Part shown: piece by piece, positions 22,172 to 63,668 of the stretch
Position numbering within the stretch: position 1 is the first letter of the stretch
Layout of the letters: every line of letters begins with the position of its first letter
Origin: Pecten maximus
Taxonomy: Eukaryota
Length of the DNA: 64,000 nt
Direction of reading: 5' to 3'
NCBI RefSeq assembly: GCF_902652985.1
Contig: NC_047028.1
Span: 14,074,001-14,138,000 of the forward strand
Program-made: the position numbers and the translations under genes
The notes under the pieces: generated by a model
What the model was told of the DNA's origin: nothing
Database searches by the model: none
The model's input: the letters and a program-made list of their open reading frames with translations, nothing else

Positions 22172-24760
22172 AAAAAAGAAGCGATCCCAGAGGGATCTTG
22201 GCGCCCACCATTGAATGATCTTTATAGGTTCCATGTCATATTGATCTTTTCTCTACTTTTCCCTTCCTCTAAGTCATACTAATCTTTGTAAATTCAGAAA
22301 CAGCCCTCTAGTACATTTCAAACAAGAGGAACCTATATATAAAATTTAAGATTTAGCGATAATGGCTGTCTGTTCTTTTCGGATTGGTCCCAAAATGCAA
22401 CACCAGGGACCAAGGGGAACCTACATATGAAATTTGAGAAAGATCCCTTCAGTACCTTCTGTAAAATAGCGATAACAAACTTCAATTGTCAAAATACAAG
22501 ATGGCTGCCTGTCGGGCAGGTTGTTTTCTGACTGGTCTCAAAATCCAATATGCATAACTAGGCACAGAGGGCAACCTACAAATGAAATTTCAGAAAGATC
22601 CCTTTAGCAATTTCTGATAAATAGCGATAACAAACTTCAATTGTCAAAATCCAAGATGGCTGCCTGTCGGCCATGTTGTTTTCATATTGGTCCCAAGAAT
22701 TAGATGCAATATGCAGAACTACAGACCAAGGGGAACTTGCAAAAATGTTTGAGAAAGATCCCTTCAGTACTTTCTGAAAAATAGCGATAACAAGTTTCAA
22801 TTGTCAAAATCTAAGATGGCTGCCTGTCAGCCATGTTGTTTTCCGATAGGTCTCAAAATGCAATATGCATAACTAGGCACCAAGGGGAACCTATATATGA
22901 AATTTGAGAAAGATCCCTTCAGTACTTTCTCAGAAATAGCGATAACAAACTTCAATGATCAAAATCCAAGATGGCTGCCTGTCGGCCATGTTGTTTTCCG
23001 ATTGGTCTCAAAATGCAATATGCATAACTAGGCACCAAGGGAACCTACATATGAAATTTGAGAAAGATCCCTTCAGTACTTTCTCAGAAATAGCGATAAC
23101 AAACTTCAATGATCAAAATCCAAGATGACTGCCTGTCGGCCATGTTGTTTTCCGATTGGTCTCAAAATGCAATATGCATAACTAGGCACCAAGGGGAACC
23201 TTCACATAAAATTTGAGAAAGATCCCTTCAGTACTTTCTCAGAAATAGCGATAACAAACTTCAATTGTCAAAATCCAAGATGGCTGCCTGTCAGCCATGT
23301 TGTTTTCCGATAGGTCTCAAAATGCAATATGCATAACTAGGCACCAAGGGGAACCTATATATGAAATTTGAGAAAGATCCCTTCAGTACTTTCCCAGAAA
23401 TAGCGATAACAAACTTCAATGATCAAAATCCAAGATGGCTGCCTGTCGGCCATGTTGTTTTCCGATTGGTCTCAAAATGCAATATGCATAACTAGGCACC
23501 AAGGGGAACCTATATATGAAATTTGAGAAAGATCCCTTCAGTACTTTCTCAGAAATAGCGATAACAAACTTCAATGATCAAAATCTAAGTTGGCTGCCTG
23601 TCGGCCATGTTGTTTTCCGATTGGTCTCAAAATGCAATATGCATAACTAGGCACCAAGGGGAACCTATCATATGAAATTTGAGAAAGATCCCTTCAGTAC
23701 TTTCTCAGAAATAGCGATAACAACTTCAATGATCAAAATCCAAGATGACTGCCTGTCGGCCATGTTGTTTTCCGATTGGTCTCAAAATGCAATATGCATA
23801 ACTAGGCACCAAGGGGAACCTACATATGAAATTTGAGAAAGATCCCTTCAGTACTTTCTCAGAAATAGCGATAACAAACTTCAATGATCAAAATCCAAGA
23901 TGGCTGCCTGTCGGCCATGTTGTTTTCCGATTGGTCTCAAAATGAAATATGCATAACTAGGCACCAAGGGGAACCTACATATGAAATTTGAGAAAGATCC
24001 CTTTAGTACTTTCTCAGAAATAGCGATAACAAACTTCAATGATCAAAATCTAAGTTGGCTGCCTGTCGGCCATGTTGTTTTCCGATTGGTCTCAAAATGC
24101 AATATGCATAACTAGGCACCAAGGGGAACCTTCACATGAAATTTGAGAAAGATCCCTTCAGTACTTTCTCAGAAATAGCGATAACAAACTTCAATTGTCA
24201 AAATCCAAGATGGCTGCCTGTCAGCCATGTTGTTTTCCGATAGGTCTCAAAATGCAATATGCATAACTAGGCACCAAGGGGAACCTATATATGAAATTTG
24301 AGAAAGATCCCTTCAGTACTTTCCCAGAAATAGCGATAACAAACTTCAATGATCAAAATCCAAGATGGCTGCCTGTCGGCCATGTTGTTTTCCGATTGGT
24401 CTCAAAATGCAATATGCATAACTAGGCACCAAGGGGAACCTACATATGAAATTTGAGAAAGATCCCTTCAGTACTTTCTCAGAAATAGCGATAACAAACT
24501 TCAATTGTCAAAATCCAAGATGGCTGCCTGTCGGCCATGTTGTTTTCCGATTGGTCTCAAAATGCAATATGCATAACTAGGCACCAAGTGGAACCCATAT
24601 ATGAAATTTGAAAAAGATCCCTTTAGTACTTTCTGAGGATTAGCGATAACAAGAATTGTTTACGGGCAGACGGAGGGACGGACGGAGGGACGGTTGGACC
24701 AGGGACCAACGACGCAGGGCGATTTGAATAGCCCACCATCTGATGATGGTGGGCTAAAAA
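22172..24760 (+). mobile_element. Helentron-associated non-autonomous element (HINE/pearl/DINE-1-like) carrying a 155-bp satellite array of ~15 units
   Basis: 5' GCCCACCAT subterminal motif; 155-bp period (GATCCC at 23066, 23221, 23376); GACGG microsatellite near 24670; 3' hairpin TAGCCCACCATC-TGAT-GATGGTGGGCTA; A-rich flanks with no TSD. Confidence 0.88.
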
Positions 24761-30309: not shown

Positions 30310-33300
30310 TTAGGCACTTCCAGATAATGTCTTCTTTCCCTTCTGAAAAAAATAATCAAAATCATTGAGGTTGTTATCAGAAACAGACAAAAGATTGTAG
30401 AGTGTATGTATATGGCCCTATCGACAGAGTAATGCTTTGTCACACCCTTAATTATATGCTTATAATTCAGCTCCATTGGCAAATAATCATCACAACTCAA
30501 CCTTAACTATAATGAGTCATTGTCATAACAAAACTATGATATTACACTATTGTGTAAACTCTAGTTAAAAGTTAATGTCTCAATTCTTGTCATAAGTTTT
30601 GGTCTCAACTCAAAGCACAATTTATGGGCTTAATTCTAAGCGATTTTGATTGTAATTAATGTTATCGCCTCAAATCTAATAACAAATTCAGTTGTTGTCA
30701 CAACTCAACAACAAGTTACCATCTAACCTCAACTCTAAACACATCTCATCGTATCAAACCTAATCAAAAGCTATTGTCTGAATACCTTTTATAAATCACT
30801 AATCAGAATTTGATTACTATGTACTTACATCATCTTTCTTTGTGTTATTTTCAAAGAACATGAAATCCTGAAAAGAGAGAGAATAAACATTTCAGAATAT
30901 ACAATCTTGTTAAAGATCAAACAGATTTTTGACACATAGGAGAATACACAGCCATGTGTCGTTCCTAAACGTGAATTTAACATTGATACAGAATAATTAC
31001 TTATATCATCCAAATACTAAAACACATACAATTTATGATACATTTATGAAACTGAGCTTAATAAATTGAAGGGTTTTGTTGAGCAAGGTATCTTGTACGC
31101 AAATTATTCCACATGTGGTCAAGTGTGACCTTTGGTTCTTTAATGTTGAATGATTGGCAACCAAATTTAATAAAAGAAGCCTTTAACCTACAACAGTTGT
31201 AATCCCTTGAACATGTGGACAAAAACTTTTAAGATATACATATGCTACAAAATCACCAATAAAAAGTGATTTTCCCTCAGTGTAATAGAGACTTACGATA
31301 AGAAACACTGCTCCCATAAGGACAGCTTTTACATTAACGTCCAGGTCGAGTGGGAAAGAGATTCCAAAGTTGTCGGCATCTGTAAACACTTCCTTTGCGA
31401 GTCCTGACCACTGTTTTGTCACACGACCAACAAAGGTCTCCTCATCTGCTGCGTAAACCTGTTACACAAAAAAATGTAGGATTTTTTAGGAACTGTTTGA
31501 TTTCATACTTTGTTAATTAACAATTTTATTTATATATCATAGGCAGTTAAAGATTTATAGATCATACAGTTTGTCTCTTACTAGTACTTGCCATTTGAAA
31601 TCTTTCTTGAAAGAAACAATGACTTAATCGCCTCGAAGTCCCTCACCCATAGCAAGAGTACCATGCATGAAAAACATTAATTTCTCTGCACGCTTACTAC
31701 ACTATGGTAAATTCTTCACATTCCAACTCTTTACTTTTTCACACATTTTACACAACAGTAAATGCCATTTTATTAACTTCAAATACAGTCCACCTGACTA
31801 GTTTATCTAGAACTTGGTTCTGGTTTTTACCAGTAAGCAAATGTAGTTTTAGAGATTTGTTAAGAAGAATGACAATAAAACAAATATTATGTATGCTTTA
31901 TTAAATAATGACATACAACATTTAATATAATATTTGATTGATGAATATCTCTGCAACTACATACATTAAACCCTACTTAAAGAAGAAACTAACAACATTT
32001 TAGTCAGTTTGTTTTTAACGGGAACGACTGGATATTTCAATCTGCTTGCGGTGACAATTCTATGAGGTAAGCCTTTATCTAGATCTGTGATACTGCTTGC
32101 CTTTTTTTAATTTTACTTTGGTTCAACTGGTTTGACCCGGTAGATCAGAGCTAGTGGAACAGAACTTACATCAAACTCAATATCTCCACACATGTTCCAT
32201 GTACAACATGGACCCACAATCCTCAACACTGTTTCTTCTGCAGCATTCTCGATGCGAAATCGTGGCTTGCAGCAGCTCCATGACTGGGCCACATACCCAA
32301 TCACTTTTCCCGGTGGGGCTTCAACAGTAACTTTCTGTAACACAACATCACAATGTATTTTTCTGTTACCTGTCATGAGACTCCTAAAATCTAATAATTC
32401 AAAACAAATTAACAGTTAAAGGCATATAAGTACCACAGGCATGGCCTAGTGTATGACAATAAAGATTACATTTGGACTTTTTATATCACAAAAGAATTTC
32501 ATGAAATAAACATTGGACTTTTTATATCACAAAAGAATTTCATGAAATAAACAGACTCATGAGCTAGCTTTCCAAATCAGAGAATGGACTTTCTGGACAC
32601 AGTAATATATATCTTCTGGACGCTGGGACATTTCTGTCGACATTACTGAATTGCCGAAAATATTTTCCTGAAGGAAAAAGTTGATTTTTTACCTGCAGAC
32701 AGCAGGGAAACCAACAGGAAGAACACCGGAGTCCTCGGGACAGGTGCATGACTTCTTTGTGAGTATTGTCTGTGATCTTTATGTCAAATGGTCGTTTCGC
32801 CCCACAACAGTTGCGAGTACAGCAGCAAGTATCTATGGAAAAGATATACACGACATCGTACATACATGTACCTAAACTTTAAGTAAAACTTAAACATTTG
32901 CCATTTTCATAACCCATCAGATGAAGATTAATTTCACTGACCCATACTTTCAGTTATACAAAATTTTGTGAAAATCATACATATATGATCATAATTCAGA
33001 CATTTCTGATTGATGGATATAGAGGACAAAAATGAATATAATTAATTGAACATTCAATTTCAGAAGTAGTGTGTAAAATCTTAACATTGAAAAAAAATTT
33101 GATGTATATTTCATAAAGATTATGTACTAGAGCGTACCTTTCTATTAAGCCCTCAAAACAAGCCTGTTTAGGAGAATCTATCCTTATCATAAAACAAAAA
33201 GTATTATCTTTGTGAGCCCTAAATAAACCTGTCCATGGGATTACCTTTGTAAGCCTATAATAAACAACCTATCTTAGGTTTTAACATTATCATACAACGA

Positions 33301-36300
33301 CAGTATTACCTTTGTAAGCCTATAATAAACAACCTATCTTAGGTTTTCACATTATCATACAACGACAGTATTACCTTTGTAAGCCTAATTAACAACTTAT
33401 CTTAGGTTTTCACATTATCATACAACGACAGTATTACCTTTGTAAGCCTAATTAACAACTTATCTTAGGTTTTCACATTATCATACAACTACAGTATTAC
33501 CGTTGTAAGCCACATAAGACCTGTCCTTGAGAATTCAATATTATTATACTGTACAACTAGACTAATACCTTCGTGAACTCTATAAACGACCTGTCAAAGA
33601 GAATTTATCATTACATGTACAGGTAACATACAACTAGTATATATTACCTTAGTGAGCCTATCTGTCCATAGTGTTGGGAATCGGTTGAATTTTTGTGATC
33701 GATCATCACTTGTGTGTAACCAATCGATGATCGATTAAAATCGATTAATTTCCAAATATATTTTTTGTATTCATGTCTCAATATTTTGTGAAATGCTTTC
33801 GACAACAATTTCAGTAACTAATAAACTGTTATACCTACATGTATACTATCTTTATACCTACATGTATACTATCTTCCTGTGTGTTTATTTGTTTATTACA
33901 CAGATAAAAATGAACCAAAATAGTTTTTTTTAATAATTTTATTCAACACATAAAAACAACAACAAAAGGATTGTTTATTGGAGTATTTAGCTAATTTAAT
34001 CCATCCGTTATTGAAAGTCTAATATACTTTGAAAACGAAAGTAGAACTGTGACTTACCATTGAAGGAATACGACTTTCTGCACATTTTACAAATAGTTTT
34101 CGTCATATTTAAAGTATCAGTACTTAACAGACCTTCTGCTTCTTGTTTTCATTAAAAACCAAAGTGTTTCCATAAAACAGACCCTGTGCGTTTACCGGGA
34201 AGAAAGATCGTATACGTTAATGTTGCTTCCATAGCTAGTCGCTTATGTTCTCACAAACGAAATCTTAGTCATCGGTACATTTGCATTCCCCCTAGTATTA
34301 CTACACTGTACCAGTTAATGTGACGCTTGATTTTGTATGATACAAGCATAACCATTTCCCGCAAGCGACTGTGTTGTAGACATTGTCAAGCTGAATTTGC
34401 GTATGTTTATCTGAAATCCGGCTAATATATTTTCATAAAACCTGATGTAGGGCACTTCCGACGAAACTCGATTACAGTTTTCTTACTCGATTAATTGATC
34501 AAACGTCTCAAACAAGTGATACTCGACGAACTCGATTAATCGGAACACCACTACCTGTCCATGATAATTCAATATTATCATACAACTAGTACATTACCTT
34601 TATGAGCCCCATAAAGACCTGTCCATGATAATTTAATATTATCATACAACTAGTACATTACCTTTATGAGCCCCATAAAGACCTGTCCATGATAATTTAA
34701 TATTATCATACAACTAGTACATTACCTTTATGAGCCCCATAAAGACATGTCCATGATAATTTAATATTATCATACAAATACATCTAGAGTATTACCTTCA
34801 TGAGCCCTATAAACAATCTGTCCAAGTGAGTTCAACACCTCATACTTGTTGTTGGTCTCAATTCCCGTCACAGCTGTCAAGTAAAATTAAATAAATTCAC
34901 AAGTTATCTGTCAGCTACATTATGAATTAAAACTAAAGCAAGTTACACAATTGTTACCAATTATAATTGTTATGATTTACAGTGCACAGTCCAAAATACT
35001 TAGAATTTTCTATTTTGTTTATTCAAACAAACATTTGACCAGAACTTCAGTACTAATACTTATTTATATCATCTCCCCCCGGTTTGAGACCAAAAGTAAG
35101 AAGTAAGCTAGCTTCCAAAATCATAAGTCTAATCTAATTTTGATAAATATATAATTTCAATATTCTGACATGTTAGTCTATCAAACTCAAAATCTATTTG
35201 CATGTATTTAAATAATTTTTTTTTTTTTTTTAATTTTTGTTGGCCTATTTTATAAAGCGATTTTGTACTGATTAATTAGATGTAGATTTAGCTTACCTTC
35301 GAAACCCTCCACCTTTTGTTTGACGAGCAGTTGATCTACTTGCGACAAATACTGCAGTCCAGGGGGGCAGTTGGCTGGTGGCTGCTGGGGGCCAGCTGCC
35401 CATCCCCCGGGGCCTACAGGAGCTGCCCCTGGGGCCATAGGTGTTGGGGCTGGAGCTATAAATTGGAATACAACAATGAATTTAAGAATATGCATATGAA
35501 ATACATAATCATACAATATTAGGTCAATGATAAATATTTTGTTAGATTCATTTCTTCTGACATAAAAAAGTTATCTTATTGAAGTGTCCAAGCAATCATG
35601 ATTATAATTAACTTAATGTGTTTACTGTAATGGTAATATGACATCCTCCTCCAATGTTTAATTTTATTCAATTTTAAATGAACACAAGTGAATGATTCTA
35701 TTTATCACATTCATTGAGGAAACAGCAAAACTTTTCAAATTATTTTCCATATAGACATTTCAAATTAAAAAAAGTACATGTACGTATATAATGTGCACAC
35801 ATGAACAAGACAATCATAGCATATATATCATGGCATCCCGTTGACCCATTATTTTTAGCAATATGAGAAACTCAAAATCTGATAGGTCAAAGCTTTAGCA
35901 TGTCAAATAGACATTTCCATCAATCCCAACAGTTAAATATCAATTTGAAGAGTCAGAAAAATACTTTCCAGTGTCTACGTGTACAGAGGAGCCCACTTAT
36001 TTGCATATCGGTTATTTGAATATCCCGCTTATTTGCATAAAATTCTCAGGTCCCGATTTTTTTCTTCTTTATCTTTGTATTTCAATCCCGTGTATTTGCA
36101 TCGACTAAAACACTGACTCCCGCTTATATGCATATAAAAATTCCAAAAAATCGAAAATTTTTAATTGATTTTAGGGTATTTTTGTGATTTTCCCGTAATA
36201 AAAGTTTTATGAAATGTGTTTTAACTTACATTATTCTTATCATTGGTTCACACTTCGTCATTACAGGTTACGTACAATGCATCGATATTGACATTGTTAT

Positions 36301-43085: not shown

Positions 43086-44091
43086 TGCTCAGGTTAGAAT
43101 GGCTGTTCCATGAACCTCCCTCACACTCTCGATCGGGCGTATAAGCACTGCTCATGGTTAGGCTAGTTATCTACCATAGAAAAATATTAGCCCCTACTTC
43201 AGGCCTATAGTATATTTTTTTATTATTATTTTTCTATAAATACTTACCAGATGCTGACGTTTGTGGTACTAGAGATTACTGAGAGATGAATATTGACTTT
43301 GAACATTTTTTAACTAAATTATCAATTTATCTGCTTTTGACATGTATTAATAGTACTTTTAATTTAACCCACAACACCTGAAGCATATAGCCTATATCTC
43401 AATAAATCGTGACATTCGGATTTTACTTCATGCACAGTCAACTTTATCATAATTCAGGCCTTAACAACTATTTTTTTAATTAGCTATGTTATGAAACGGA
43501 TAATTTAAGCTTCTTAAAAAAATAGGGTTTAACTGCCCCCAGATAATATGCACAATATAAGTATACTATCTTAACAAATATAATATATATAATACAAGAC
43601 AGTGCCCTTGTGTAGCCGAAAGGTACGACATTTCTATGATGTATATAGATAAATAATTATTTATCAAATGGCCTATTTTGCAATCATATATTGCAAATTT
43701 ATTATTATCGTTATTACAAATGAGTAATGTATATGCCAACGTAAATGCGACCATGCATGCAGAATTATTTACTTACTGTAGAATGTACATGCTGTCTGTA
43801 ATCTATGTCACGTTTAAATCAATTTTCTAATTTGTCATCTATGTACAGGTTGTCTTATTTATCTAGAATCACAGAAGGTTATGTTTCTGACCACAGTTAC
43901 CCCTCGGTCAGTTATATATACATCCTATAGCATGATGCACCATGCAGATACATGTATACTTTTGTATATTTGGTGTTTGTATCTTCATATTTTGTTCCTT
44001 TTCTTCCGCTGGATTCATGTACACTTAGTTAATGCAATATCTTCCGTAGGTCACCCTGATACATGTATACCCATACCAAATCATTTGATCT

Positions 44092-47000
44092 TTGATAATG
44101 GGTAATGATTTTATGGGTCACAGGGTGGCAATCGGAAATTTTTATGCCAAAGCATACAGATATATGATTTTTCGATTACGTTCTGTTTTCTTCCATTTTA
44201 AAATATTTGTCTTTTTTGTAAATTTGTTGAATAATTACCGTGAAACATATATGAGCAATAACTATTTTTTGCTTATTTTGATATTACTATTATTACAGCA
44301 TATGGATATTGAGTCAAATCCAGGGCCTGTAGAAGGTGAACTTTCTGGTTTTCATTTAAAGATTAGAAGTGTGAGAAACAAACTTGAATATATTGAAAAT
44401 AAAGCAGGTGAATATGACGTAATATGTCTTACTGAAACTCATCTTGATGTTGAAGTCCCAAGCAGCGAGTTATTACTGGATGGCTTCCACCACCCTTTTA
44501 GACTTGATAGAAATTTTGCGGGAGGGGGGATTTTAGTATATGTAAACGAGGTTTTGAAAGTTAGCAGGATAGTTGATCTAGAACGTCCCGACACTGAAAT
44601 ATTATGGCTCCAAATTTATCTTCCCGAAAAAAGCATACTCATTGGGACTGTGTACCGTTCTTCCTTTCATACAAATCAATTCTGGGAAAATCTTCAGGCT
44701 TCAATAAGTGATGCGGTGGAAATATCCAGTAATGTCATACTGCTTGGAGACCTCAATGTTGACATGCTTACTATGTCACAGAATCATGTTTTATCTGATA
44801 TAATAAATTCGTTTAATTTTATAAATGTCATAAATGAACCTACTCGTATAAGTCCCACGAGGTCAAGTTTACTCGATCCAATTTTGGTATCAGAATCAAT
44901 TTCATACACTTATTCCTCTGTAGTATCTACTGAAAACGTAGTTACTGACCACCAAGGTTGTGTTGTATATATTTCTGTTCCGTCATTTCAGAAACTAACA
45001 TATAAACGTAAAATTTGGTTATATAAAAGAGGCCACTATGTACTTTGTAATCGTCTTGTTGAAGAATATGATTGGGATACGCTTTTCGCTACATGCAACT
45101 CTGTCAATTCGGCCAGTGAACGTTTTACTGAAATTTTTCTTGATTTTGCTCGTAGATCGATACCACATAAGGAAATTACTGTAAGACCAAACGATAAGCC
45201 CTGGATGTCTTCAGACCTTAGAAAAAATATGAGAGCTCGTGATAGATTTCGGAAAATAGCCAAACGTACCAATCATCCACGGGACATAGCTAAATTCAAA
45301 AATCAGCGAAATAAAGTGAATACTATGAAAAAGTATGCACGACAGTCTTTTTATGAAAATGTTGGAAATCTTATTGAGTTTTATCATTCGTCTGATCCTA
45401 AAAACTATTGGCGACTTGTCAAAAAATTGATGGGGAATTCTGAGACATCACGTCCTATCCCTACTTTAGTTGATCCTATTTTGGAACGTTTATTAGTCGA
45501 TGATAAGGCCAAATGTAATGCATTGAACGACTATTTTTGCAGTATCACTAGCATAGATGACAACAATAACGATGTTCCTTTGTTAGAACCTAAAACAGAG
45601 AGTTCTTTTGAGTTACCTGTAATAAGTCAAAATGACATATCTGATGTTTTGATGAATTTAAAACTTGGTAAAGCTTCTGGCTCTGATGAAATTAGCCACC
45701 ATATGTTGAAGTATACTGCTAAAACTGTATGTAGACCACTTGAATTGCTTTTTAATTTGTCGTTATCAACTGGTATTTATCCCGATACTTGGAAATTTGC
45801 TAAAGTGTTACCTCTTTTTAAGAAGGGTGATAGGCATTCTCCTTCTAATTATAGACCTATATGATTTTTGTCCTCTGTTGGTAAAACATTTGAAAGAGTT
45901 ATCTTCAAGTATTTACATAATTATTTTCTTGAAAATTCACTTTTCTATCAGTATCAATCAGGATTTATGCCGGGTCACTCGACCGTATATCAATTAATTG
46001 ATTTATATCATAACATTTGCCTTGATCAAGAAGAAAAAAAACCATTCTTGTTTAGTTTTCTGTGATATTTCTAAAGCGTTTGACAGGGTTTGGCATAAAG
46101 GTTTATTAGTAAAACTAAAGTCATACGGGATATGCGGAAATTTTCTATCATGGACTGAAAACTACTTAACCAACAGACGACAAAAAGTTTTTATTAATAA
46201 TTGTTATTCGGATTTTGGTTTGATACATGCTGGCGTCCCTCAAGGTTCCATTCTTGGGCCTCTATTTTTCTTAATATTTATCAATGATATCTCAGAAATT
46301 CTTCAATCTACTGCACGTCTTTTAGCTGACGACACCTCTTTGAAAGTCTCTTCATCTTCATGTCTAGAAATACAAACAGTTTTAAATAGAGACCTGGATG
46401 CTTTAAACAGATGGGCAAGTACTTGGCTAGTTACTTTTAATCCAAATAAGACGGAAGTTATTTTTATTTCTAATTCGGATAACGTGGATGAAGATCTGGA
46501 ACTGATTTTTGATGGCCATTTTTTAAATTTTAGTAGTAAGCATAGACATCTTGGAGTTACATTAAATTCAGATGCTAAATGGGTAGATCATATAAATGAA
46601 ATTTATAAGTCGGCTATGGGAAAAGTAAATATATTGCGAAAACTTAAATATACATTAAAGCGTGATGCTCTTTTACGAATTTATAAAACTTATATTTTAC
46701 CAGTTTTAGAATATGCGTGTGAAGTTTGGGATGGGTGCACTTCAAGTGATTCAGAAAAGTTAGAGAAGGTTCAGCGGGAGGCAGCTAGGATAATAACAGG
46801 GTTACCATTATTTGCTAGAAACGAGTCATTGTATTCAGAAACAGGTCTAGAATTACTTTCAGTTAGAAGGAAAAGATGGAAATTACAATTAGTTTACAAA
46901 ATGGATAGACATCAAACTCCAAACAAATTTACTTCCCTCTACAGTCGGTGAAAACAGACAGGGTCTAAGAAATAATGAAAAATATAGAATCCCAAATTTC

Positions 47001-47710
47001 AGACTGTCTATTACAAACCAATCTTTTCTACCTTCCTCTTTGACGATGTGGAACTCTATACATTCTGATATTAGATCCATGCCTTTTTCTGCTTTCAAGT
47101 CAGCTTTAGCCCCTAACTTACCATGCTCAGTACCCCCTTATTACTTAATTGGTGATAGAAAACTTAATATTATTCACACTAAATTAAGACATGAATGCAG
47201 TTCCCTTAATCATGATCTTTTACCGTTCAAATCTGGTCCAAAACTCAAATTGTGTAAATTGTGGCTATTATTGTGAGAATGCCTATCACTTCTTCTTTGA
47301 ATGTCAATCTTACACAAATGCTCGAGTTGTGCTTTTAAATCATTTAAATGATTTAGATATAAATATATCTTTAAGATTATTACTTTTTGGAAATGAAAAT
47401 ATGTCTTTGGATTTAAATTGTGTTGTATTTAACAAAGTACAAAATTTTATAATATCCAGCGGAAGATTTTAACAAGATTTTAACAATATTTAACATGTTT
47501 GAAAATGTTATTGACTTTGTTATATTATTTTGTGTGAGTGCCTAATGTTATGTAGGCCTATATCTCTTTCGTACTGCAGTTGATCAGTCTGTAATATCAT
47601 CTGTTGTCTATGTAATTATTGTAAGGAAATGGCTTCATAAGTTGTAATAACTTGTGCCAAATCCTATTTGCAAATATGTGTAAATAAAATATGTTTAAAG
47701 TAAGTAAGTA
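44092..47710 (+). mobile_element. Near-full-length CR1-clade LINE (single ORF: 2A-like leader, APE endonuclease, RT, CCHC), inactivated
   Basis: APE motifs (CLTETHL, LLGDLNVD, SLLDPIL, TDHQG); RT motifs (KASGSDEI, NYRPI, DISKAFDRVWH, GVPQGSILGPLFFLIFIND, LADDT); C-terminal CVNCGYYCENAYHFFFEC. Premature TGA at 45862-45864 and frameshifts near 46035, 46930 and 47215. 3' AATAAAATATGTTTAAAG(TAAG)n tail. Confidence 0.95.
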
Positions 47711-52905: not shown

Positions 52906-54308
52906 CTTGTTACCAAAACAACCGTCTTCAACTGTTAGAGTCATATCATGCATGAAGCCCCGCGTTTGTGACTATGCCTTATGCCTGATGTCATGTATAC
53001 TCATCGACACATCTTCTCTATTTCAAAAGCAATAGGCCTAACAGTCACCATTGAGACAGACTTATTTATTTCGGCCGCTTCCATGTGGCCAAGGTACGAC
53101 GCGTAGTTGGTTTAATCGGAATTATTCTTGTTTTTGTGACTACCTAGCGGCCACATCATGGTTATCGCAAATTATATATAGCAGCCATCAGCTATAGCAA
53201 CTGCGTTGAATTAAACCAGATAATACTTAGTAAACATTTGCAAGACATTTAATTAATATTGTGATATATTTTTTCATTGGTTTGAACACAGAAATATTAT
53301 AAAACAAGATAATCTGGTAGCTACTATTTTTGGGGGGTCGTTAAAACTTATTCTTGATATCTTACATCGACATCGAAGAATTGCACAAAAGTCACACAAC
53401 ATATTAGCTCGTTTCTAAACACATTGTTAATTAGATACAGATGTGTGGAAATGAATTAAACCACACCACACAAATGTACCCTAGTGAACTACTCAATAAT
53501 AACATCGACATACATAATTAAAGTGTAATGCATTCATTAGTTATTAATGAATAAATATGTACATCCAGCAAAGTATATGAATTTAAGGAATTGAACATAC
53601 AAATACATCTGTACATGTGAATTTGTCAAACTTTAAGCAAGTGTTGAAGAGACTTACAGACACCAAATAAATATTCAACAATACAGAATAGATTCAGTAC
53701 TTTGAAAATAAGTATAAAATGTGTCAAACTTTAGGAAAGTGCCGAGAGGGCTCATACAACTTCCGTAAGCTTCTATACCACCTCTCTGAAATACCAATAG
53801 GTCGTTAAATACCATGTGTGACAAGAATACTGCATGAAAACAGGTTTGTAAAAAAAAAATTGCCAGCGCTATGTTTAATGCTTTATAGGTTTTTGATTGT
53901 AACTTACGTTACATTTTTGGTTTAAGATTAATATTTTGTGGTGTGTGGACACTTCTTGCCGCTAGAAATGAAAAAGAGTACAATTCAACCCTTAACGAAA
54001 TCTATCAGGCCATGACGTAAAGTAGACCTTCCGCTGAGGCGTACAACTCAATGGTGGCTTTCATAAAAATGCTTTCATGGTAGTATAAACGTCAGGAATG
54101 CTCCATTGGTCGAATTGATGTATAAAAGGCTAACGAATAACTACAACTGATAATGCTCGTTAATTATAAATCATTGGATCTGTATTCATATATAAAATGA
54201 TAATGTTATAACTTATTAGTGACTTGAATGTATGATTATATAGCATGTATACGGGGGAAAGGTACGTGTAAATGTTACGTTGTATCACTAAATAAAAGCA
54301 GTCGAACA

Positions 54309-57300
54309 TCACAACTCGGACTCCAGTTTCCCAGACCCGGTCCTAAACGTTACTCTTTCGGTCTGGAGACCGCCAATCTTACTGTCGTCGGTAAGGCCTG
54401 TCTGGTCCTGGTCTGTTGCGACCATCTCTAGCTCCGATTCTGTCTGGTCAGTTTTAATTATGATAGGTGGTTTTGTCTCCATTTCTCCAGGTTTGGCTAT
54501 TTGAGGATCCCCTGCCGTTACTGGCCGGGAATCTGGTCCGAGAGTTAGATTGTCTAATTGAGAGTCCGCTCCAAAATTATTGGACACAAAATGACCTTGA
54601 CCTTTTAGTTTATCGTCATCCGTCCGCGTTGACCGACCGTCAACGTCTATAATCACTCCAACCGCAACTGTCTGTTTAAGGTCCCGGATGATAATACGTC
54701 CGAGGGACGGATAATCGAAGAAACTCTCCACACACAGTGGCTTCATTGGCACCATTTCGACCACACCAACTTCACCCGGAAGTAAACTGGCGGGCGATTG
54801 TTCCGCCATCTCTCCCGTGCGGCGGTCACATCGCTCCTTAATATCGACGAATTTACATGCTACATTAGCCGTGTGAACGTTGAGAAGGGGCGTGTATCCT
54901 TTCTTAATCTGACCGGGATGGTTCAGAACAAGGATCTGTAATGTAATAGTAAGTAGATGTTATTATGTACTTCTAAGTACATAGTTCACCCCTACAAACT
55001 ACATATGTAAAGCTGCCCGAAACACGGCGAATTAATTTGTGTACTTTATTATACTATTATAGTAGATATAGTTCCGCATACGTGCAGACTAGCGTCATTC
55101 CATACTACAGCCGCGCCAACATTTTGAATGCTGCTATACTATTTTATAACGCAAGTTTATATATATTTATTCATTGCATTTTAGTCAGTGAAATAAAGAA
55201 ATTTATCAAACTAATAAACTCATATTTTCACTGTAGCGATGAGCAGTAAAAATATAAGATTTTGCAGTGAAAATATTTCGATATTGTTCACTTGTGCTTC
55301 ACACTCATGAAAATTCCAACTTTCCCAATGCTTGAAAATTCAGAACAGTTAATTGAGTATTACGGATAAACATCTTTGTTCTGATTATATCCGAGCCTAT
55401 GACACATTATCTTGACTAATCGCAGAACTACCGATTGACTGACTGACAACGTGACCTACAATCAGCGGATTGACGTTTAAATCAATTGACGAACCTGGGC
55501 TGTAAACTTTCCGGCTTTCCTTGGTGGGTTCTCCTCCGGGTCTCCACAGACGTCCCCTTTTTTAATATCCTTTAGTCCTAGGTTCTCGATCTGAATACCC
55601 ACGTTGTCTCCGGCGTGAACTTCCGTCATCACCTCACGGAACACTTGTACGGCCCTCACCTGATGTAAACAAGATCATTTTACAATGTAGGCGCAGTAAT
55701 ACGGCCCATATGTATAATAAAAAGTCGCTTACTAGTTTCCAAATTTCGCGAACTCTTGCGTTAGAAACTATATACATCAGCTGCATATATTGTACATAAA
55801 CGTAGCAGCAATGAAATTACATGCTAATGTAATTAGTGCTAATTAATGCTACTCGTAACTCACCTTAGCTTTGACGTCATTTGGGGCAAAGGTCACTGCC
55901 ATGTTTGGTTTCAAGCATCCAGAATGTATTCTTCCTGCTGTCACAATACCAATATCTGTAAAGACCCGTTGAATATGGTAACTATTTATAGATGTACATT
56001 TTTATCTAATCATTCTTCTGCCCTGCTATGATAATCATATATTTGAAATGACAGGGCGTGCAGACATATTGCTTGCTAGCTCTCGACTTCTCGGAAGACG
56101 TGATATTGTACTGGGGACCAATCGTTGAATACGAATAAGTTGTAACATGTGAACACTATAGGCAGGGGAGCAAAAAATGTAGGAAATGGAAATACAAACC
56201 ATTTCTAGCCAAAGGGAGCACTGGCCATTCCGGTGTCAATGGACCAAGAGAGATAGCAGTATAACTGCGAGGTGATTATTAAATTGACAGGATCACAAAT
56301 AAACTAATCTAAAAAAATACCTTGCATTGTTTTGTTTTCACTGCAATTATCGTAATCAAGGAAACACTGACGTTTGTTTTCCGCCAACTCATAAGTATTG
56401 TACCAATAATCATTACTTGTCGATTTTGAATATTCTGAAATCATATCAATTAAATTGGGCTAATTTGGACCAGATTCCAAGAGACATCGTCCCAAAATGA
56501 ACTTTTGTGTTTTGGCAGGACGTTCAAAATTACAACCTATTCAATCTGAATTCGGGAATTCATACATACCCCCTAGTTTGTACACGGAATGTATTGGAAC
56601 TCTGAGAGGTCGGTGCTGCATCCGGACCGGAGTGTCTACCTGATCTATGGCCTCAATTAGTGAGTGGCCCCCGGCCCCACCGGAACCTCTCTTCACTCGC
56701 CACATGTGGAACCATGACATGTTTTCAGATTTCTTAATCAAATTATCACCGTCGAAAGCTGATATGGGTATGAAAGCGACGGAGTTTGGGTCAAAGCCGA
56801 TCCTCTTTATCATGGGTGTCAACACTTTGATTACGTTGTTATATCTCGTCTATTGGACACAGATTAAACATGTTTCAAAATATGTTTTCATTCTTTCAGT
56901 TATGACGATACAAATCTTTGACATCTTAGGAGAAACGGGAATGGACTGATATTGTCGTCATTTTCGAGTTCACATCAAATAGAATGTTGTTTTCACGAAT
57001 GTTTGCAAAGAAGCTCGGTAAAACAAAATAAATTTCCTATGCTTCTTTATAATATTATATAAACTTGCGTCAAGCCAATACAGTTAGCTTAGTCGACTTT
57101 TCAAGCGATTTTAACCTATTTTCGGCAACAATCATTTTCCCATAAATTCCATATAACCATACAGTAAAAGGCTAATTATGACTCTTGACAATTACCTCCC
57201 TTGGTTTTTAATATTACCTCGCTGTAAGGTGGTGTAGTGGTTTCCATCTTGTTAACGACAACGATGAGTTGCTTGACCCCGAGGGAATAGGCGACTTGAA

Positions 57301-60300
57301 GGTGTTCCCTGGTCTGGCCCCGTCTCTTAACGCCCTGCTCAAACTCGCCCTTCTCTGCCGACACCACAAGTATGGCTACATCCGCCTACATCACAACCGG
57401 GAATACAATTGTGAAAAGTGTTATGATTTTTTTCTAAGTTTCAGTTTTGACTAAAAGAAGAAAGTTATTAAACTGTAAAATAGTTCAAGCAAACTGATGA
57501 TATTGAATAAGGAAAAGTACACCTATCACCAAGTGCAATGAAAAGTGATATAGCAACGGGCATCCCCCGTACATGTATTATACCCTGGAAATATATGGGT
57601 TGCATATGTGTGTTTTAAGGTGGATGCGATATGTTCGTCTTCTGTGACAGCGTGAAACTGAAGATGACTTAAGAGTGATTCCTTACTGAAGTATACTGCC
57701 GAAGAATAATACCGGGAACCAGTTGTTATAATTTCCAAATGCTGAACGTTAAGTAGAGAATATGAACAACCATTCTTACATTGTCAGAAACACGAGACTC
57801 CTTCCTCAGGAGACGAGCTCTCAAACAAAAGGTCAAAAGTGAGGCAGTGTCAATGGAGACATTAGGAAGAAAACAGCAGGTACAGTTCCTACGCTCTACA
57901 GGTTCTCAGTCAAACATGGTGTTATGTCACAAACCTGTGATGCTCCTGTGATCATGTTATGTACGTAATCACGGTGTCCTGGTGAGTCAATGATGACGAC
58001 ATACTTATTCGAAGTCTCGAACCGCCTCAATTTGCTGTCGATTGAAATCCCTCTCTGTCTTTCTCCTTTAAGCTTGTCCATAACCCACGCATATTTGAAT
58101 GACGCTTTACCTGCCTGTTGAACAGTCAAAACTTGATTAAACAGCACAATAAACATAAGTTTTTCATGTTATTTATTGCTCACATAAAACTTTGCAGCGT
58201 ATTAGGGTGATTAAACAAAATTCTCCAACCTCCATTGCAAACTCAAATAGTGCAGTATTTTGGTATATGGTAGATAACAAAGAGGCGCATGACTGAATCA
58301 TGCACTTAAACTTTAATTTTACATGCTCCATTTTCATTATCAAACTAGCAGATGCCATTATTGTTGAAAATCGTTTTTAAAATCTAAAATAAAACTCAAA
58401 AATCTTCCATAAAACATACCAAGTCAGCCTCGCGTGCTAATCTGTTCATTGTCTCTTTGTCGATGCCATTACACAGGTAAACAAGATGCCCAATCAGAGT
58501 AGATTTCCCGGAATCCGCATGACCAACCACAACAAAATTTACAAATGACTTATCTATTCTGCTCCTGACTGTCGGTCTAACCGGAAGCATTGGAGTTTCT
58601 TCCGTCAGGAGTGCGCGCGCCTTGTTTTCTGCTTCTCGTTTTGGTATCATGGTGTCTATGGTAGGCGTTGCTGGTTGGACATTGATAGACGTGGCTAGAA
58701 ATCAAACAAACAATACGTCGGACATTTAACTATCATGCAACTATTTACAAACAAAGCATGAGTTAAAGCGGGTTTAAAAGAAAACTATCACATCCGTTTT
58801 GTCAATCATCCGATAAATCAATGTTGCACTGTAGGTCTATGTTATAACATTTTTTCTTTTCTTTTGGTTGCTCAAACGCAAAACGAATTGATGACAATGC
58901 GCAAAACTAAAGTAAACACATGCCAAATCTAAGACTAAAACTGATATCTCTTACAACGGTTTGACGTCTTTTAGTTTGTCGTTTGGTTTACTGGACTTAA
59001 GGTGACTGCTACACGCTTGTTTTAATTCCCCTTACATGTGTTATACGGTTTCATCTATAGATCCGGATGAAGAATATACACTTCACTCATGATCGATACC
59101 TAGCTATGTTTAACATATATAAAATACTACCTGTACCATTTACAAGCCTAATATTTACATTCTGTGTGACAGTCTCCCATTACTCCTGTGTTAAACCAGA
59201 TGGTATTGATCACCGTATAAATGCAGCCCAGATCACATGACGTCACTTCCGTCAGCGTCAAAAAATGTTTGGCAATGCGTTGCGGGTGCATCAAACCTAG
59301 CAAAGATTTCGACTTAGAGCAATCGCGTAATTATGACGTCATGTTGGTGCTTTGTTGGTCATAGTCACGCCGAGGCTTTGTATTACACATCAATTTGAAT
59401 GCAAACCAAGCACTACAATGAAATCGATTTCACATGTGCCGTTCTTTCAATTGAACAAACAGAGGAATAGCTTAACTTTAACCCCAGATTAAGAAAAAGA
59501 TAAAGTGAAGTTTAACGTATCTTAATGTAAATATAACAATTAAACGCTTGTTAGATTGTATTTATTGTCAATATCAATGCAATCTGGGTGGCAGATAAAG
59601 ATGAAGATGAAGATGTCTTTGATCCAAAAGCTGAATTAGACATTTTGTTTGAAGTGTTGTTTTGATGACTGTATCCGTATAGGGAACAACCAACCAATTG
59701 AAAAAATAAATTTTTGAAACAGCCCCTATACACAGGGAGCAACCAACCAATTTAAAAAATAAATGTGAGCCAAGGATAAAATGTCTGGCAGCCACTGATT
59801 GGCCAGTATGTTATGAAGTGAGAAAATAGATATGTAGCCTGATAGGTAACTACTAATAAGAAATATTGATTTAAATTTCGTAAGTCTGATTGATTTTTTT
59901 CCCAGACGTTCAGGTAATAATAATCAACAGGTAAACATTTTAGATTTTTGAGAATTTTTTTACAGGGAAATTCACCCATTTTCAAAATGACTACCCTGGA
60001 GAAAATTTGAGCTGAAGGACCCAACTTTTTTTTATTATGTGTTATATCAGACCCTAAACTTTTGTTATAAACCATAATTGTCATATTGAATTCAAGAATT
60101 TCAATGAAATACTCCAAATCGTTAACACTAAAGTCTATGGGAAAACAATTGGTTGGTTGGTCCCTATAAGCTGTAGCATATTAGTTGAAGACGGAAGTCA
60201 AATTCAACATCACAGAACGTTTATTCAGTCATCAAACATACCGAAAAACAAACTTCGTCATTCCACAAAGTCATGTCAGATTCCAGCATTACTCAAAGCA

Positions 60301-60536
60301 AAATCAGAAGACAACTCACCTGGAATTCCACCATCCATTGGAACGCTGGACTTCCGGAGTATACCGGAAGGAATCCTCGTAGGATCGTAATCGTCCTGTT
60401 CCGGAATAGGTGCTGTAAGATCCGGCGTGGCAAGTAGTTGAACGCCTCCAAAAGTTACACTAGGTGTTCGCTGAGTCTTTCCACTAGTTGCTCTGTCGTC
60501 GATTGTATTTCGGTCAGTCTCGTGGTCATTTTCCAT
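54309..60536 (-). CDS. EEF1A-like: Divergent elongation factor 1-alpha paralog (eEF1A-like translational GTPase) with N- and C-terminal extensions, 667 aa
   Basis: Exons 60536-60320, 58694-58420, 58114-57935, 57385-57218, 56849-56570, 55955-55864, 55659-55495 and 54935-54309 join in phase (2004 nt), with an in-frame stop upstream of the ATG. Motifs [70 protein letters not shown]...[12 protein letters not shown]. Confidence 0.93.
59238..59341. promoter_or_regulatory. Two CRE palindromes (TGACGTCA), the first with an adjacent ETS-like CTTCCG, in the first coding intron of the eEF1A-like gene
   Basis: TGACGTCA at 59238-59245 and 59334-59341 in a CpG-rich patch; a third copy at 60856-60863 upstream of the ATG. 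Confidence 0.3.
59682..60164. mobile_element. MITE, Sola2-like (483 bp)
   Basis: 19-bp TIRs GGGA(A/C)CAACCAACCAATTG (18/19 match), TATA on both flanks, GRG termini, and an internal duplicate of the left TIR near 59735. Confidence 0.75.
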
Positions 60537-61464
60537 CGTAAATCCCACTGGTCAGTCTACAAATGTTATCACCACACAATAACAACAAAGAATAACGACA
60601 GTGATTAAACCATAATTCCAACGGAAACTCGATAAAAGTATTGCATACTATGATAAATATAGATATGCGTGAGAATCCCTGAAAAGCGCAAGGATAATAA
60701 AACCATGTGTTCCAAAGCAGTAAGCGTCTTCTGCTTCATCGAGAACACTCGTCATACAAACCAAGGTCAAATCCGCGTTCAGTCACATTTTTAAAATGAG
60801 TACTAGGATGATGACAACGAAACCTCTACGCATGTCAGCACACATCGAACATGTCTGACGTCATATCGGATAAGGAAATACAATATTTCTAAATGTGATC
60901 ATGATATTGACATTGAAACTTCTCCATTGTCTTCATCAACCTGCATTCTCGAACCCTTGAACATCACGCTTATCATACAGCTTAGTTGTACGCTGTCCAT
61001 GCGTTATGGGTTTCATTGTGTCACGTAATTGTCTCTTTACTTCCGTGTATAGTGCTTTCCCGACCTGACATACCGAGTACTATCTGCGAGTAGGCGTAAA
61101 TTGATTCGGGTAGAGAAATAAAATCTAGAAACAGTCTTTTCATTTTATTACTTGCATTGCGAGATACTTTGCAAATTTTTAATTAGCGCAAAGCTCATAA
61201 CTTAGGCAATCCAGGAAATCATTAAATATTACAACAGGAACAAAACTTGAGCGTTCCTATAATTTTGAATCCGTGTGAGTGGTTCATGCCCAGATATACA
61301 TACTCCATAAAGATTATATGTAGAGGTGGTTAAGGTCCTGTTGTACCAGAAGAGATGTTGAACGTACTTGTAAAAAGATAAAAACAAAAGTTCCTTTACC
61401 ACACCAAGGTCCAAATTTATACATGTAGGAAGTTCCTTAACGTGATATTTCTTATTGAAAATAC

Positions 61465-63668
61465 TTAGCAGTAGACGTAGATACTTCCTTTTCTTTCCTG
61501 GGAAAACCTTAATGCTTTTGAGAAACTCAGGGCATGGGGTGGGGGATAGACAGATAATCTTATATATACATTTAGACATGCACAAGCATCACATGCACAA
61601 GCATTGATATAGCATGGTTCACGCAAGTTAAGTAAAATCTGACATGGACATCTTTTTCGGATAACGTGTAACGATTACATACTATATAAATAACTACATA
61701 GTAACAAACCATGAAACATTCCTTACTGAAAATTCGCCTTGATTCGCCGTTATGTGTGACTGGGGCTTTACATCGTGACATCCGAATGTTGAGCTTAATA
61801 TCTAACAGTTTGTTGATAGATAATAGATAAAACATGCGCGCCATTGTCCACAAGAGAAATCAAACTTCGTTTTGACTAGGTACTACATTACATCCGACTT
61901 ACAAAAATAGCGATTTACAGAAACACAATGTACAATTTTAATCCTATAAAGACGTTTAAGGGATTAAAATTGGTATTAATAACACCCTTACCCTCCACTA
62001 CAGAAAGGTACCTACCTACCAATATATATATCCCAAATGATGGTTACGTACAGGTTTGTGAAACTGCCTCCCGTTCGGTTACTAAGCTAAATGTCCTTAC
62101 CTTGTAATGATCCTCATACCAGTGTAATGCATTCTGATAGTAGGTAATTCAAAACAAACAACTAAATAGGGAACCGTTGATTGACCTGTTCTCTACGTCA
62201 GAGGTGGTTAGTTTCAAAGGCAGGTACAGTAGTTTTATGAAAGTATACCTGTATACCAAAAGTCTGCGAGAGCTATGAATAAGGAATTATGTCAGATTAA
62301 TGAATGGATTATTATGAACATGAATACAGTAAGTGTGTGCTACACTTGTGTCAACGTATTAGTCTAAACGGATTAATGCGTTAGGTCGGTAAGAAATATG
62401 TTATAAGTCATAGACAATACATGGGCTCTCTTAAAATGATATAATATTAAAGAAACACAAAGATACGTTTAACAAACTTCAAATATCTCTAGACAATTTC
62501 CTCGTTTATGATTTCTCTTTGATACCAGGAGGTGTTCAAGGTTGACTTCAGCTAAAAATGAAATCAACGTTTAATCAACCCCAGACTGATATAAAAGAAT
62601 CAAGAAGATGTCGGAATGAATCGGACTAAGAATATACCAGGCTGATAATTCCCATAGTAATGTCTAATGGGTTTGTATACCTTTTCACCAAGCTGACAGC
62701 TGTGCGTGGTACATTAGATGAATGGAGCAAATGACAAAAATACAATGAAATTTTGTTAAAACAGTATAAGAATAATGGCGAAAAAATGTTGTGAAATTAC
62801 CAAACGTATAAAGAACCACTAATGATCCATTAAAGATCTCATATGAATAAAAATAGTACGGACACCTTGATCACCCTGGGATCTCGTATGTATTAATATA
62901 ACACGGGTACCTCGATCACCCTGGGATCTCATATGTATTAATATAACACGGGTACCTCGATCACCCTGGGATCTCGTATGTATTAATGTAACACGGGTAC
63001 CTCGATCACCCTGGGATCTCATATGTATTAATATAACACGGGCACCTCGATCACCCTGGGATCTCATATGTATTAATATAACACGGACACCTCGATCACC
63101 CTCAGATCTCATACGTATTAATATAACACGGGTACCTCGATCACCCTCAGATCTCATACGTATTAATATAACACGGGTACCTCGATCACCCTCAGATCTC
63201 ATACGTATTAATATAACACGGGTACCTCGATCACCCTCAGATCTCATACGTATTAATATAACACGGGTACCTCGATCACCCTCAGATCTCATACGTATTA
63301 ATATAACACGGGTACCTCGATCACCCTCAGATCTCATATGTATTAATATAACACGGGTACCTCGATCACCCTCAGATCTCATATGTATTAATATAACACG
63401 GGTACCTCGATCACACTGGGATCTCGTATGTATTAATATAACACGGGTACCTCGATCACCCTGGGATCTCGTATGTATTAATATAACACGGGCACCTCGA
63501 TCACCCTGGGATCTCGTATGTATTAATATAACACGGGTACCTCGATCACCCTGGGATCTCGTATGTATTAATATAACACGGGCACCTCGATCACCCTGGG
63601 ATCTCGTATGTATTGATAGAACACGGGTACCTCGATCACCATGGGTTTCATATTTACAGTATGAATTA
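61465..63668 (-). CDS. 3' end of an unidentified microexon-rich gene that continues beyond the window
   Basis: Exons 63668-63631, 62692-62638, 62551-62526, 62133-62101 and 61497-61465 have GT-AG junctions and phases that join to IHTVNMKPMVIE-LGEKVYKPIRHYYGNYQP-AEVNLEHLL-NALHWYEDHYK-ERKGSIYVYC*. Confidence 0.65.
62821..63645 (-). repeat. 45-bp minisatellite (17 duplicates) copied from an exon end and splice donor
   Basis: CTCGATCACC recurs every 45 bp from 62866 to 63631. The last unit coincides with the exon end ...CCCATGGTGATCGAG|GTACCC. Confidence 0.95.

Follow-up and report, generated by a model that had tools for sequence, protein, structure and literature searches.

The minus strand of a 64,000-nucleotide stretch of Pecten maximus contig NC_047028.1 (positions 14,074,001 to 14,138,000; the whole stretch is called the window and all positions are given within it) carries, at 60536..54309, a gene encoding a diverged paralogue of the translation elongation factor eEF1A. 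The gene comprises eight coding exons separated by seven introns, all with GT-AG borders, and its 2004 nt specify 667 aa and a stop codon. The spliced model is identical, letter for letter, to the public protein P0363, which received its source name 'elongation factor 1-alpha-like [Pecten maximus]' automatically. The unbroken frame with N- and C-terminal extensions, proposed in an earlier reading of the DNA letters (the original prediction), was thus borne out.

All of the features described here lie on the minus strand. Coding exon 1 (60320..60536, aa 1-72) encodes a predicted-disordered N-extension with the conserved VTFGGV (aa 27-32) and a SILK-like GILR (aa 58-61), and exon 2 (58420..58694, aa 73-164) encodes the end of this extension, the P-loop GHADSGKS (aa 130-137) and the alpha2 helix, where R37 of eEF1A (mammalian numbering) is replaced by E153. 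Exon 3 (57935..58114, aa 165-224) holds switch I (S188, S191, K192, R194) and DSPGH, with the catalytic His211 kept and K100 replaced by H216; exon 4 (57218..57385, aa 225-280) holds the G4 motif NKME (aa 269-272), whose Glu occurs in scallops only; exon 5 (56570..56849, aa 281-374) holds the G5 motif SAF, the 12-aa animal/fungal insertion and the start of domain II with H367, S368 and L372. Domain II continues through exon 6 (55864..55955, aa 374-404; A380, H384) and exon 7 (55495..55659, aa 405-459; Q409, FRE, Q427, E429, K438). Finally, exon 8 (54309..54935, aa 460-667) encodes an eEF1A-type domain III and an acidic, predicted-disordered tail with the words RPVTA (596), RVTF (653), FRTGSGK (656) and a C-terminal ESEL. 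Of the in-frame ATGs, the start codon is the first. It is preceded, 20 nt upstream, by an acceptor AG, and the 5' untranslated part of the same exon (60537..60556) contains an in-frame TGA; therefore, a non-coding 5' exon further upstream is probable. A probable 3' untranslated region covered by transcript contigs extends over 53069..54308 (end unmapped), with AATAAA/ATTAAA near 53879, 53253, 53116 and 53070.

All seven exon-exon joins were found in transcript contigs, in each of four runs from one study, and at the exon 1 junction the contig side is 239 nt long in two of the four runs, ending near the 60537..60556 limit. Among four runs from four other studies, two bridge two junctions each and two give no exon cover (contigs indicate presence only and carry no tissue inference). 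Most of the runs used are without an RNA record, and the joined exons are taken as the sign of a spliced transcript, seen in three studies. The expression check suggested with the original prediction was therefore positive: the gene is real, spliced and transcribed. Among 24 listed runs, four, all from one study, contained 0.44-0.47 of the words of the gene; the small word shares in the remaining runs probably come from repeat elements in intron 1 (59150-60170) and intron 7 (approximately 55020-55280), where contig depth is high in 8/8 runs.

Pfam assigns to the protein a G domain and two eEF1A-type beta-barrels (GTP_EFTU, D2, D3 and GTP-eEF1A_C). In the AlphaFold model the core is mostly confident, and the predicted local confidence (pLDDT) is below 50 at aa 1-118 and aa 562-667. 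The best fold match of the modelled core is ribosome-bound eEF1A (template modelling score, TM, 0.94 to 5LZS), with eRF3 and Hbs1l next at 0.92, and the three-domain fold is predicted to be kept. The motifs listed in the original prediction, i.e., GHAD (130), RGISID (185), DSPG (207), NKME (269) and FRE (411), are all present, as is the insertion [20 protein letters not shown] (325) of animal/fungal length. The N-extension has about 119 aa (the first 115 hold 16 Thr, 14 Pro and 10 Asp) and the C-extension about 105-111 aa, with a net charge of -9.

Orthologues were found in 16 bivalve species of six orders (four scallops, five mussels, one ark shell, two oysters and four clams); the alternative models P0364, P0367 and P0129, the partial P0469 and 13 unnamed fragments are left out of the 16-row counts. 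No orthologue from outside bivalves was among the matches listed in three word-based searches (best 120 of 898, best 120 of 7268, and all 106) and among the best 150 profile matches. The original prediction had asked for a wider search, and conservation across bivalves was confirmed in this way; the evidence that gastropods, cephalopods and annelids lack the gene is weak, because scoring was limited to about 8000 candidates in two of the word searches and the profile library was merged at 50%. A metagenome scan for orthologous coding DNA gave only three loci, with 54-57% identity, which is the level of canonical eEF1A. Several long matches (P0004, P0121, P0396, P0397, P0405 and several plant and fungal rows) were rejected, being models of canonical eEF1A in tandem, fused or extended form. 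Although its source assigns it to Escherichia coli, the protein P0130 is an eEF1A of animal type and probably a contamination.

In a 45-row tree, 13 orthologue rows formed one clade (100/100), which lies outside HBS1 plus eRF3 and within which clams split from pteriomorphs. The same split is the pattern of the bivalve species tree. Forced grouping with HBS1 or with eRF3 (the partial one of the same genome) was rejected (approximately unbiased test, p-AU 0.024 and 0.016, respectively). Together with the insertion, the separate loci and the lack of HBS1_N in 4/4 scanned proteins, this upholds the earlier claim that the protein is neither HBS1 nor eRF3. With distant outgroups included, the paralogue falls outside all 22 canonical eEF1A rows (99/91), and without them it stands in an unresolved animal/fungal fork; forcing it together with mollusc eEF1A (p-AU 0.65, log likelihood 3.6 higher), bivalve eEF1A (0.63) or a plant control (0.52) was in no case rejected. 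The domain I insertion spans 21 residues in the paralogue, as in scallop, bird and fungal eEF1A, and 9-10 residues in plant eEF1A, HBS1 and eRF3. A 12-aa insertion is diagnostic of animal/fungal eEF1A. Since the insertion length is exact, introns are shared with a canonical copy (see below) and the known range is narrow, the paralogue probably originated within animals, early in bivalves, and its outside position in the trees may reflect long-branch attraction.

Membership in two further families was considered. In the 45-row tree the paralogue did not group with P0275 (source name EF-1 alpha; the EFL label is unverified). According to the accessible parts of a survey of translational GTPases, EFL is almost always exclusive with eEF1A (PMC4342817); unlike in this usual EFL situation, canonical eEF1A is present alongside the paralogue in the P. 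maximus genome. Membership in GTPBP1/2 is unlikely because identity to eEF1A is about 50%.

The P. maximus genome (G000) contains a single copy of the paralogue and four canonical-type eEF1A loci (one on C18 and three on C15), two of which splice in silico to open frames. Because of these canonical-type loci, ordinary elongation is likely covered. The C15 loci are L017, L009/L020/L019 and L021; one of them would stretch over about 57 kb, provided that its exons form one gene, another is without two exons in the fetched stretch and another has a frameshift, and these odd loci may be assembly artefacts or decaying copies. An HBS1-like locus on C4 and an eRF3-like locus on C1 are both separate from the paralogue; for these and for a mitochondrial EF-Tu-like locus we assume the labels from sequence similarity and general knowledge. 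Four of six core introns are common to the paralogue and the C18 canonical eEF1A, at the same codon and phase (48/0, 164/0, 258/1 and 343/0), and two differ. Because of these shared introns, a retrocopy origin was ruled out, and the gene structure indicates a DNA-level duplicate of eEF1A.

For residue-level comparison, 165 canonical eEF1A proteins, the 16 orthologues, five HBS1 rows and E. coli EF-Tu were aligned; the mammalian eEF1A numbering comes from a stored sequence, whose residues agree with those cited in papers. Among 288 sites at least 95% invariant in the canonical rows, 44 were lost in 16/16 orthologues and 12 of them were fixed for one new residue. These fixed changes are concentrated at the site that in EF-Tu holds the tRNA end: 6/12 of such positions are fixed for a new residue vs. 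6/276 other invariant sites (Fisher p 1e-6). The six are K100H, Q251H, I256L, V264A, E293Q and N311Q. For domain II alone the figures are 5/10 vs. 3/52 (p 0.002), and with one row per order the enrichment is unchanged. With D252, which became S or T in all orthologues, seven of the 12 tRNA-end contacts are lost in 16/16 rows, and R322 is lost in 14/16; K100, Q251, D252 and E293 are invariant in all 165 canonical rows. The Thermus to E. coli position numbers used here are presumed, and residue identities were matched on the fetched E. coli tufA. The 12 positions (tRNA 3' end, 5' phosphate and aminoacyl pocket) are those given in the accessible parts of PMC4329189 for EF-Tu, and they were transferred by alignment, not by distances in a model.

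The charge of the cleft changed as well. A76K and W78R add charge on the strand next to it, and the net charge over 19 pocket positions (seven of them chosen after inspection of the alignment) is +3/+4 in 16/16 orthologues, 0 in eEF1A and E. coli EF-Tu, and -2/-3 in three HBS1 rows. As for ribosome contacts, R37, which stacks on 18S h14, is kept in 0/16 rows and E48, a uL14 contact, in 2/16 (contacts from PMC5119991, consulted in part), while S53 is kept in 12/16, R69 in 14/16 and H95 in 16/16 (the last two are also named in the parts available of PMC10156603).

It could be supposed that the protein is a new delivery GTPase acting in the manner of eRF3 and HBS1, whose cargo, a protein or RNA factor specific to bivalves, would be taken to ribosomes that are in a particular state. 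The same pocket positions differ in HBS1 too, eRF3 and Hbs1l have not conserved these pockets (PMC5119991), and long N-extensions are described as typical of specialised eEF1A paralogues (PMC4342817; both sources in part). On the other hand, the eRF3 and Hbs1l clefts are described as more electronegative (PMC5119991, same parts) and that of the paralogue is more positive, R37 and E48 are lost, and no partner gene was identified; we consider this reading rather unlikely.

The original prediction had based its reading on altered G-motifs, and these turned out not to be a signature of the family. The changes V16A (GHAD), T72S and A92S occur in 3/16, 11/16 and 4/16 rows, respectively, and D156E (NKME) in 4/16, scallops only; all four are absent from the 165 canonical rows. 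Scallops combine D156E with G195A, W196F and N197D, and other lineages have their own replacements (N153S in mussels, D17A/G in clams, H15P and G70N in oysters). Lineage-specific changes affect V16, D17, T72, N153, D156 and G195, and each of 19 G-motif sites is kept in at least some orthologues. Such lineage-by-lineage drift reads as relaxed constraint on nucleotide handling. G19, K20, S21, D91, P93, G94, the catalytic H95 and K154 are kept in 16/16 orthologues, and because GKS, DxPGH and K154 are retained, GTP binding is likely kept. In yeast, N153T and D156N lowered fidelity and are not described as null in the parts consulted of PMC2712093. The FRE word of domain II was likewise rejected as proof of lost tRNA binding: FR (295-296) corresponds to F261-R262 of E. 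coli EF-Tu, and four clam rows keep HH. What stands of the earlier proposal is an eEF1A derivative that is intact, transcribed and conserved.

The extensions vary from 90 to 260 aa (N) and from 40 to 120 aa (C) across orthologues, the latter replacing the Lys-rich tail of eEF1A, and they are poorly alignable apart from a few short words, whose patterns were defined after the fact. V[TS]FGGV occurs in 14/16 rows (N-extension), [GS]IL[KR], for which we assume the SILK consensus, in 9/16 (scallops and mussels), RPxT[AT] in 13/16 and an RVxF-type word in 7/16. The pattern [FY]RTxSG[KR], with E[ST]x[LF] after it at the very C-terminus, is present in 12/16 rows and in 13/13 unnamed fragments, and shuffled sequences give the end motif in 0.02-0.4%; it fits the class I PDZ-binding motif. 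Docking of the tail (aa 632-667) on its own core (aa 118-560) scored 0.02. In the Atlas, the whole protein matched generic EF1 clusters only and the tail gave no match, and three PP1-type matches in the genome have open frames of only 61-69 aa.

The tails and two core positions also bear on the possibility, raised in the original prediction, of a cytoskeletal role for the paralogue, for instance as an actin bundler. A PDZ-type end would presumably suit the cell cortex. Moreover, eEF1A bundles actin, and its binding of actin and of aminoacyl-tRNA is mutually exclusive (PMC2712093, in part). However, F310 became I or L in 16/16 rows, N331 is changed in 16/16 (Asp in eight), and an acidic tail has taken the place of the basic one; in yeast, bundling is reduced by N329D/S, with F308 implicated as well (second-hand from the same parts of PMC2712093). 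The idea is thus disfavoured and appears improbable.

The least probable explanation, which we regard as very nearly untenable, is a decaying duplicate without a selected function. It would fit the stem branch of 1.2 changes per site, approximately 10 times a typical eEF1A end branch, and the scattered G-motif changes. Nevertheless, the protein is annotated in 16 species, the transcript is spliced, scallop cores are 91-93% identical (tails 70-88%), and eight of the 10 coding variants shown are synonymous, although 77% of sites are non-synonymous (p 0.0003), with both non-synonymous variants in the tail. Selection on these variants looks purifying; the count covers the 10 variants shown, and 54 further table rows are outside it. 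The cleft changed once and then stayed, unlike the scattering of a decaying surface. The oyster orthologues P0395 and P0468 are the fastest-evolving; they have H15, G70 and I71 changed, keep the fixed cleft residues and end with EEDV and MEEV.

Taking these data together, we propose, with a probability of roughly 0.5, that the paralogue is a GTP-binding regulator withdrawn from bulk aminoacyl-tRNA delivery, which would hold another, probably RNA, ligand and be tethered by its tails. In the suggested course of events, eEF1A was duplicated at the DNA level, probably before the split of pteriomorphs and imparidentian clams; the shared introns, the clade and its distribution are observed facts. 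An early burst of change was followed by fixation of the cleft residues, both visible in the sequences; the structural place of these residues is transferred from EF-Tu. Each lineage would then have relaxed a different G-motif residue, nucleotide binding being kept and the ribosome-timed cycle loosened. The class I PDZ-type C-terminus and the PP1-type SILK- and RVxF-like words, conserved as motifs, would localise the protein through putative partners, and the more basic cleft would accommodate some other ligand, probably RNA or acidic, giving a localised, GTP-dependent, sequestering regulator of RNA or protein. In this proposal GTP binding, loss of aminoacyl-tRNA delivery, the ligand and the partners are all deduced from sequence.

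Several observations weigh against this proposal. A conservative replacement (E to Q, I to L, N to Q, R to K) accounts for many of the fixed sites, V262 and Y254 are kept in 16/16 rows and N307 in 15/16, domain III R423, R427, D428 and T432 are kept in most rows, and so are the residues that touch the sarcin-ricin loop, H95 (16/16), R69 (14/16) and S53 (12/16). The model adopts the closed conformation of ribosome-bound eEF1A (TM 0.94, 5LZS), though its alignment included four canonical rows, and the cleft contacts derive from the EF-Tu alignment only. Regarding the tails, RVxF arises in 7-18% of shuffles, two oyster rows are without all tail motifs and the ark row is without the C-terminal one. 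Chance alone puts the short RVxF consensus into about one protein in four (PMC4794898, in part). Furthermore, archaeal MM1309, with Gln at the position of Glu271, binds and protects Cys-tRNA (PMC4329189, in part).

The same facts suit a specialised elongation factor, whose pocket would select a subset of aminoacyl-tRNAs or alter the rate or fidelity, with tails localising it in one cell type. The fold, the catalytic His, R69, S53, K51, K55 and the tRNA-side residues of domain III are largely kept, the cleft changes are mostly conservative, MM1309 offers a tRNA-binding example with Gln at the same site, the basic cleft still suits RNA, and the yeast N153T and D156N variants are a precedent for lowered fidelity. 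Against it stand the replacement of the four otherwise invariant residues K100, Q251, D252 and E293, the loss of R37 in all rows, and G-motifs drifting by lineage, oyster rows losing H15, G70 and I71. We regard this as the main rival, though the less probable of the two. Equally tentative is an extended form of the regulator hypothesis, in which the proteins would be a bivalve-own subfamily of eEF1A-derived GTPases on a par with eRF3 and HBS1, with a basic cleft for a ligand new to the family (for example, uncharged or N-blocked tRNA, other RNA, or an acidic protein end) and with PDZ/PP1-type tails fixing it on a signalling scaffold of a single tissue or life stage.

The surroundings of the gene were also inspected. 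A RING-finger gene (Pfam zf-C3HC4; L032:2806-3132, plus strand), presumably RNF168-like, lies just past the end of the window, head to head with the paralogue and about 4.3 kb upstream of its ATG, and a shared promoter region is possible. Within the window there are a LINE-type element whose endonuclease and reverse transcriptase occupy separate frames (44089-47270, plus strand), exons of a phospholipid scramblase gene (31186-35570, minus strand), a von Willebrand A domain exon (7814-8428, plus strand) and a leucine-rich-repeat exon (17833-18663, minus strand). Tandem arrays occupy 1056-3042 (42 bp, 47 copies), 22391-24652 (155 bp, 15 copies) and 62835-63653 (45 bp, 18 copies), and the 42-bp and 45-bp arrays yield long spurious open reading frames.

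A literature search for a bivalve eEF1A paralogue of this kind found no prior description, although mentions in supplements or subscription papers are possible, and the parts consulted of the translational GTPase survey list no such subfamily (PMC4342817). EF1-alpha is mentioned for scallop inactive gonad, with the paralogue not specified (PMC3774672), and a table row 'Elongation factor 1-alpha-like' with negative values exists for a clam, whose identity with the paralogue could not be told (PMC9781830; both in the portions seen); PMC8807479 contributed nothing on the subject. This is a genuine, apparently undescribed bivalve subfamily of eEF1A. It should be stressed that eEF1A is among the slowest-changing proteins, and here a duplicate with a rebuilt and fixed cleft has been kept across six bivalve orders. 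Nature has in this way set up an experiment on the residues that define a carrier of aminoacyl-tRNA. The duplicate is also a candidate for a so far undescribed level of control over translation or RNA in commercially important shellfish. Moreover, the database name 'EF1-alpha-like' hides the paralogue and can mislead orthology calls and the choice of reference genes.

Among known systems, canonical eEF1A (mammalian eEF1A1, 5LZS) is the closest, sharing the three-domain fold, about 50% identity, the insertion, four of six core introns and His95; in a search with the Mizuhopecten orthologue, the best match in the Protein Data Bank was eEF1A1 (E 7e-173) vs. Hbs1l (2e-84) and eRF3 (1e-76). The paralogue differs from it by 44 of 288 invariant sites lost, the rebuilt tRNA-end pocket, the lost R37 and the extensions. 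HBS1L and eRF3 (with Ski7) are likewise GTPases derived from eEF1A, with N-extensions and a tRNA-end pocket that departs from the canonical one; however, the paralogue carries the insertion that they lack, has no HBS1_N (4/4 scanned), shows the opposite cleft charge, was found in bivalves only and is 36% identical to HBS1 vs. 50% to eEF1A. Some of the paralogues listed in the accessible parts of the survey (eRF3, HBS1/Ski7, EFL, CysN) took distinct jobs. MM1309/SelB-like proteins and the nematode-type mitochondrial EF-Tu2 set a precedent for an altered-pocket EF1-family duplicate that binds a tRNA subset (PMC4329189 and PMC4342817, in part), although their origin and compartment differ from those of the paralogue. 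Finally, eEF1A2 of vertebrates and other eEF1A copies specific to a tissue or stage resemble it as an extra eEF1A gene beside the canonical one, but eEF1A1 and eEF1A2 share 92% identity and have their tRNA, eEF1B and GTP sites conserved (PMC2712093, in part), whereas the bivalve paralogue is about 50% identical to eEF1A and has those sites changed.

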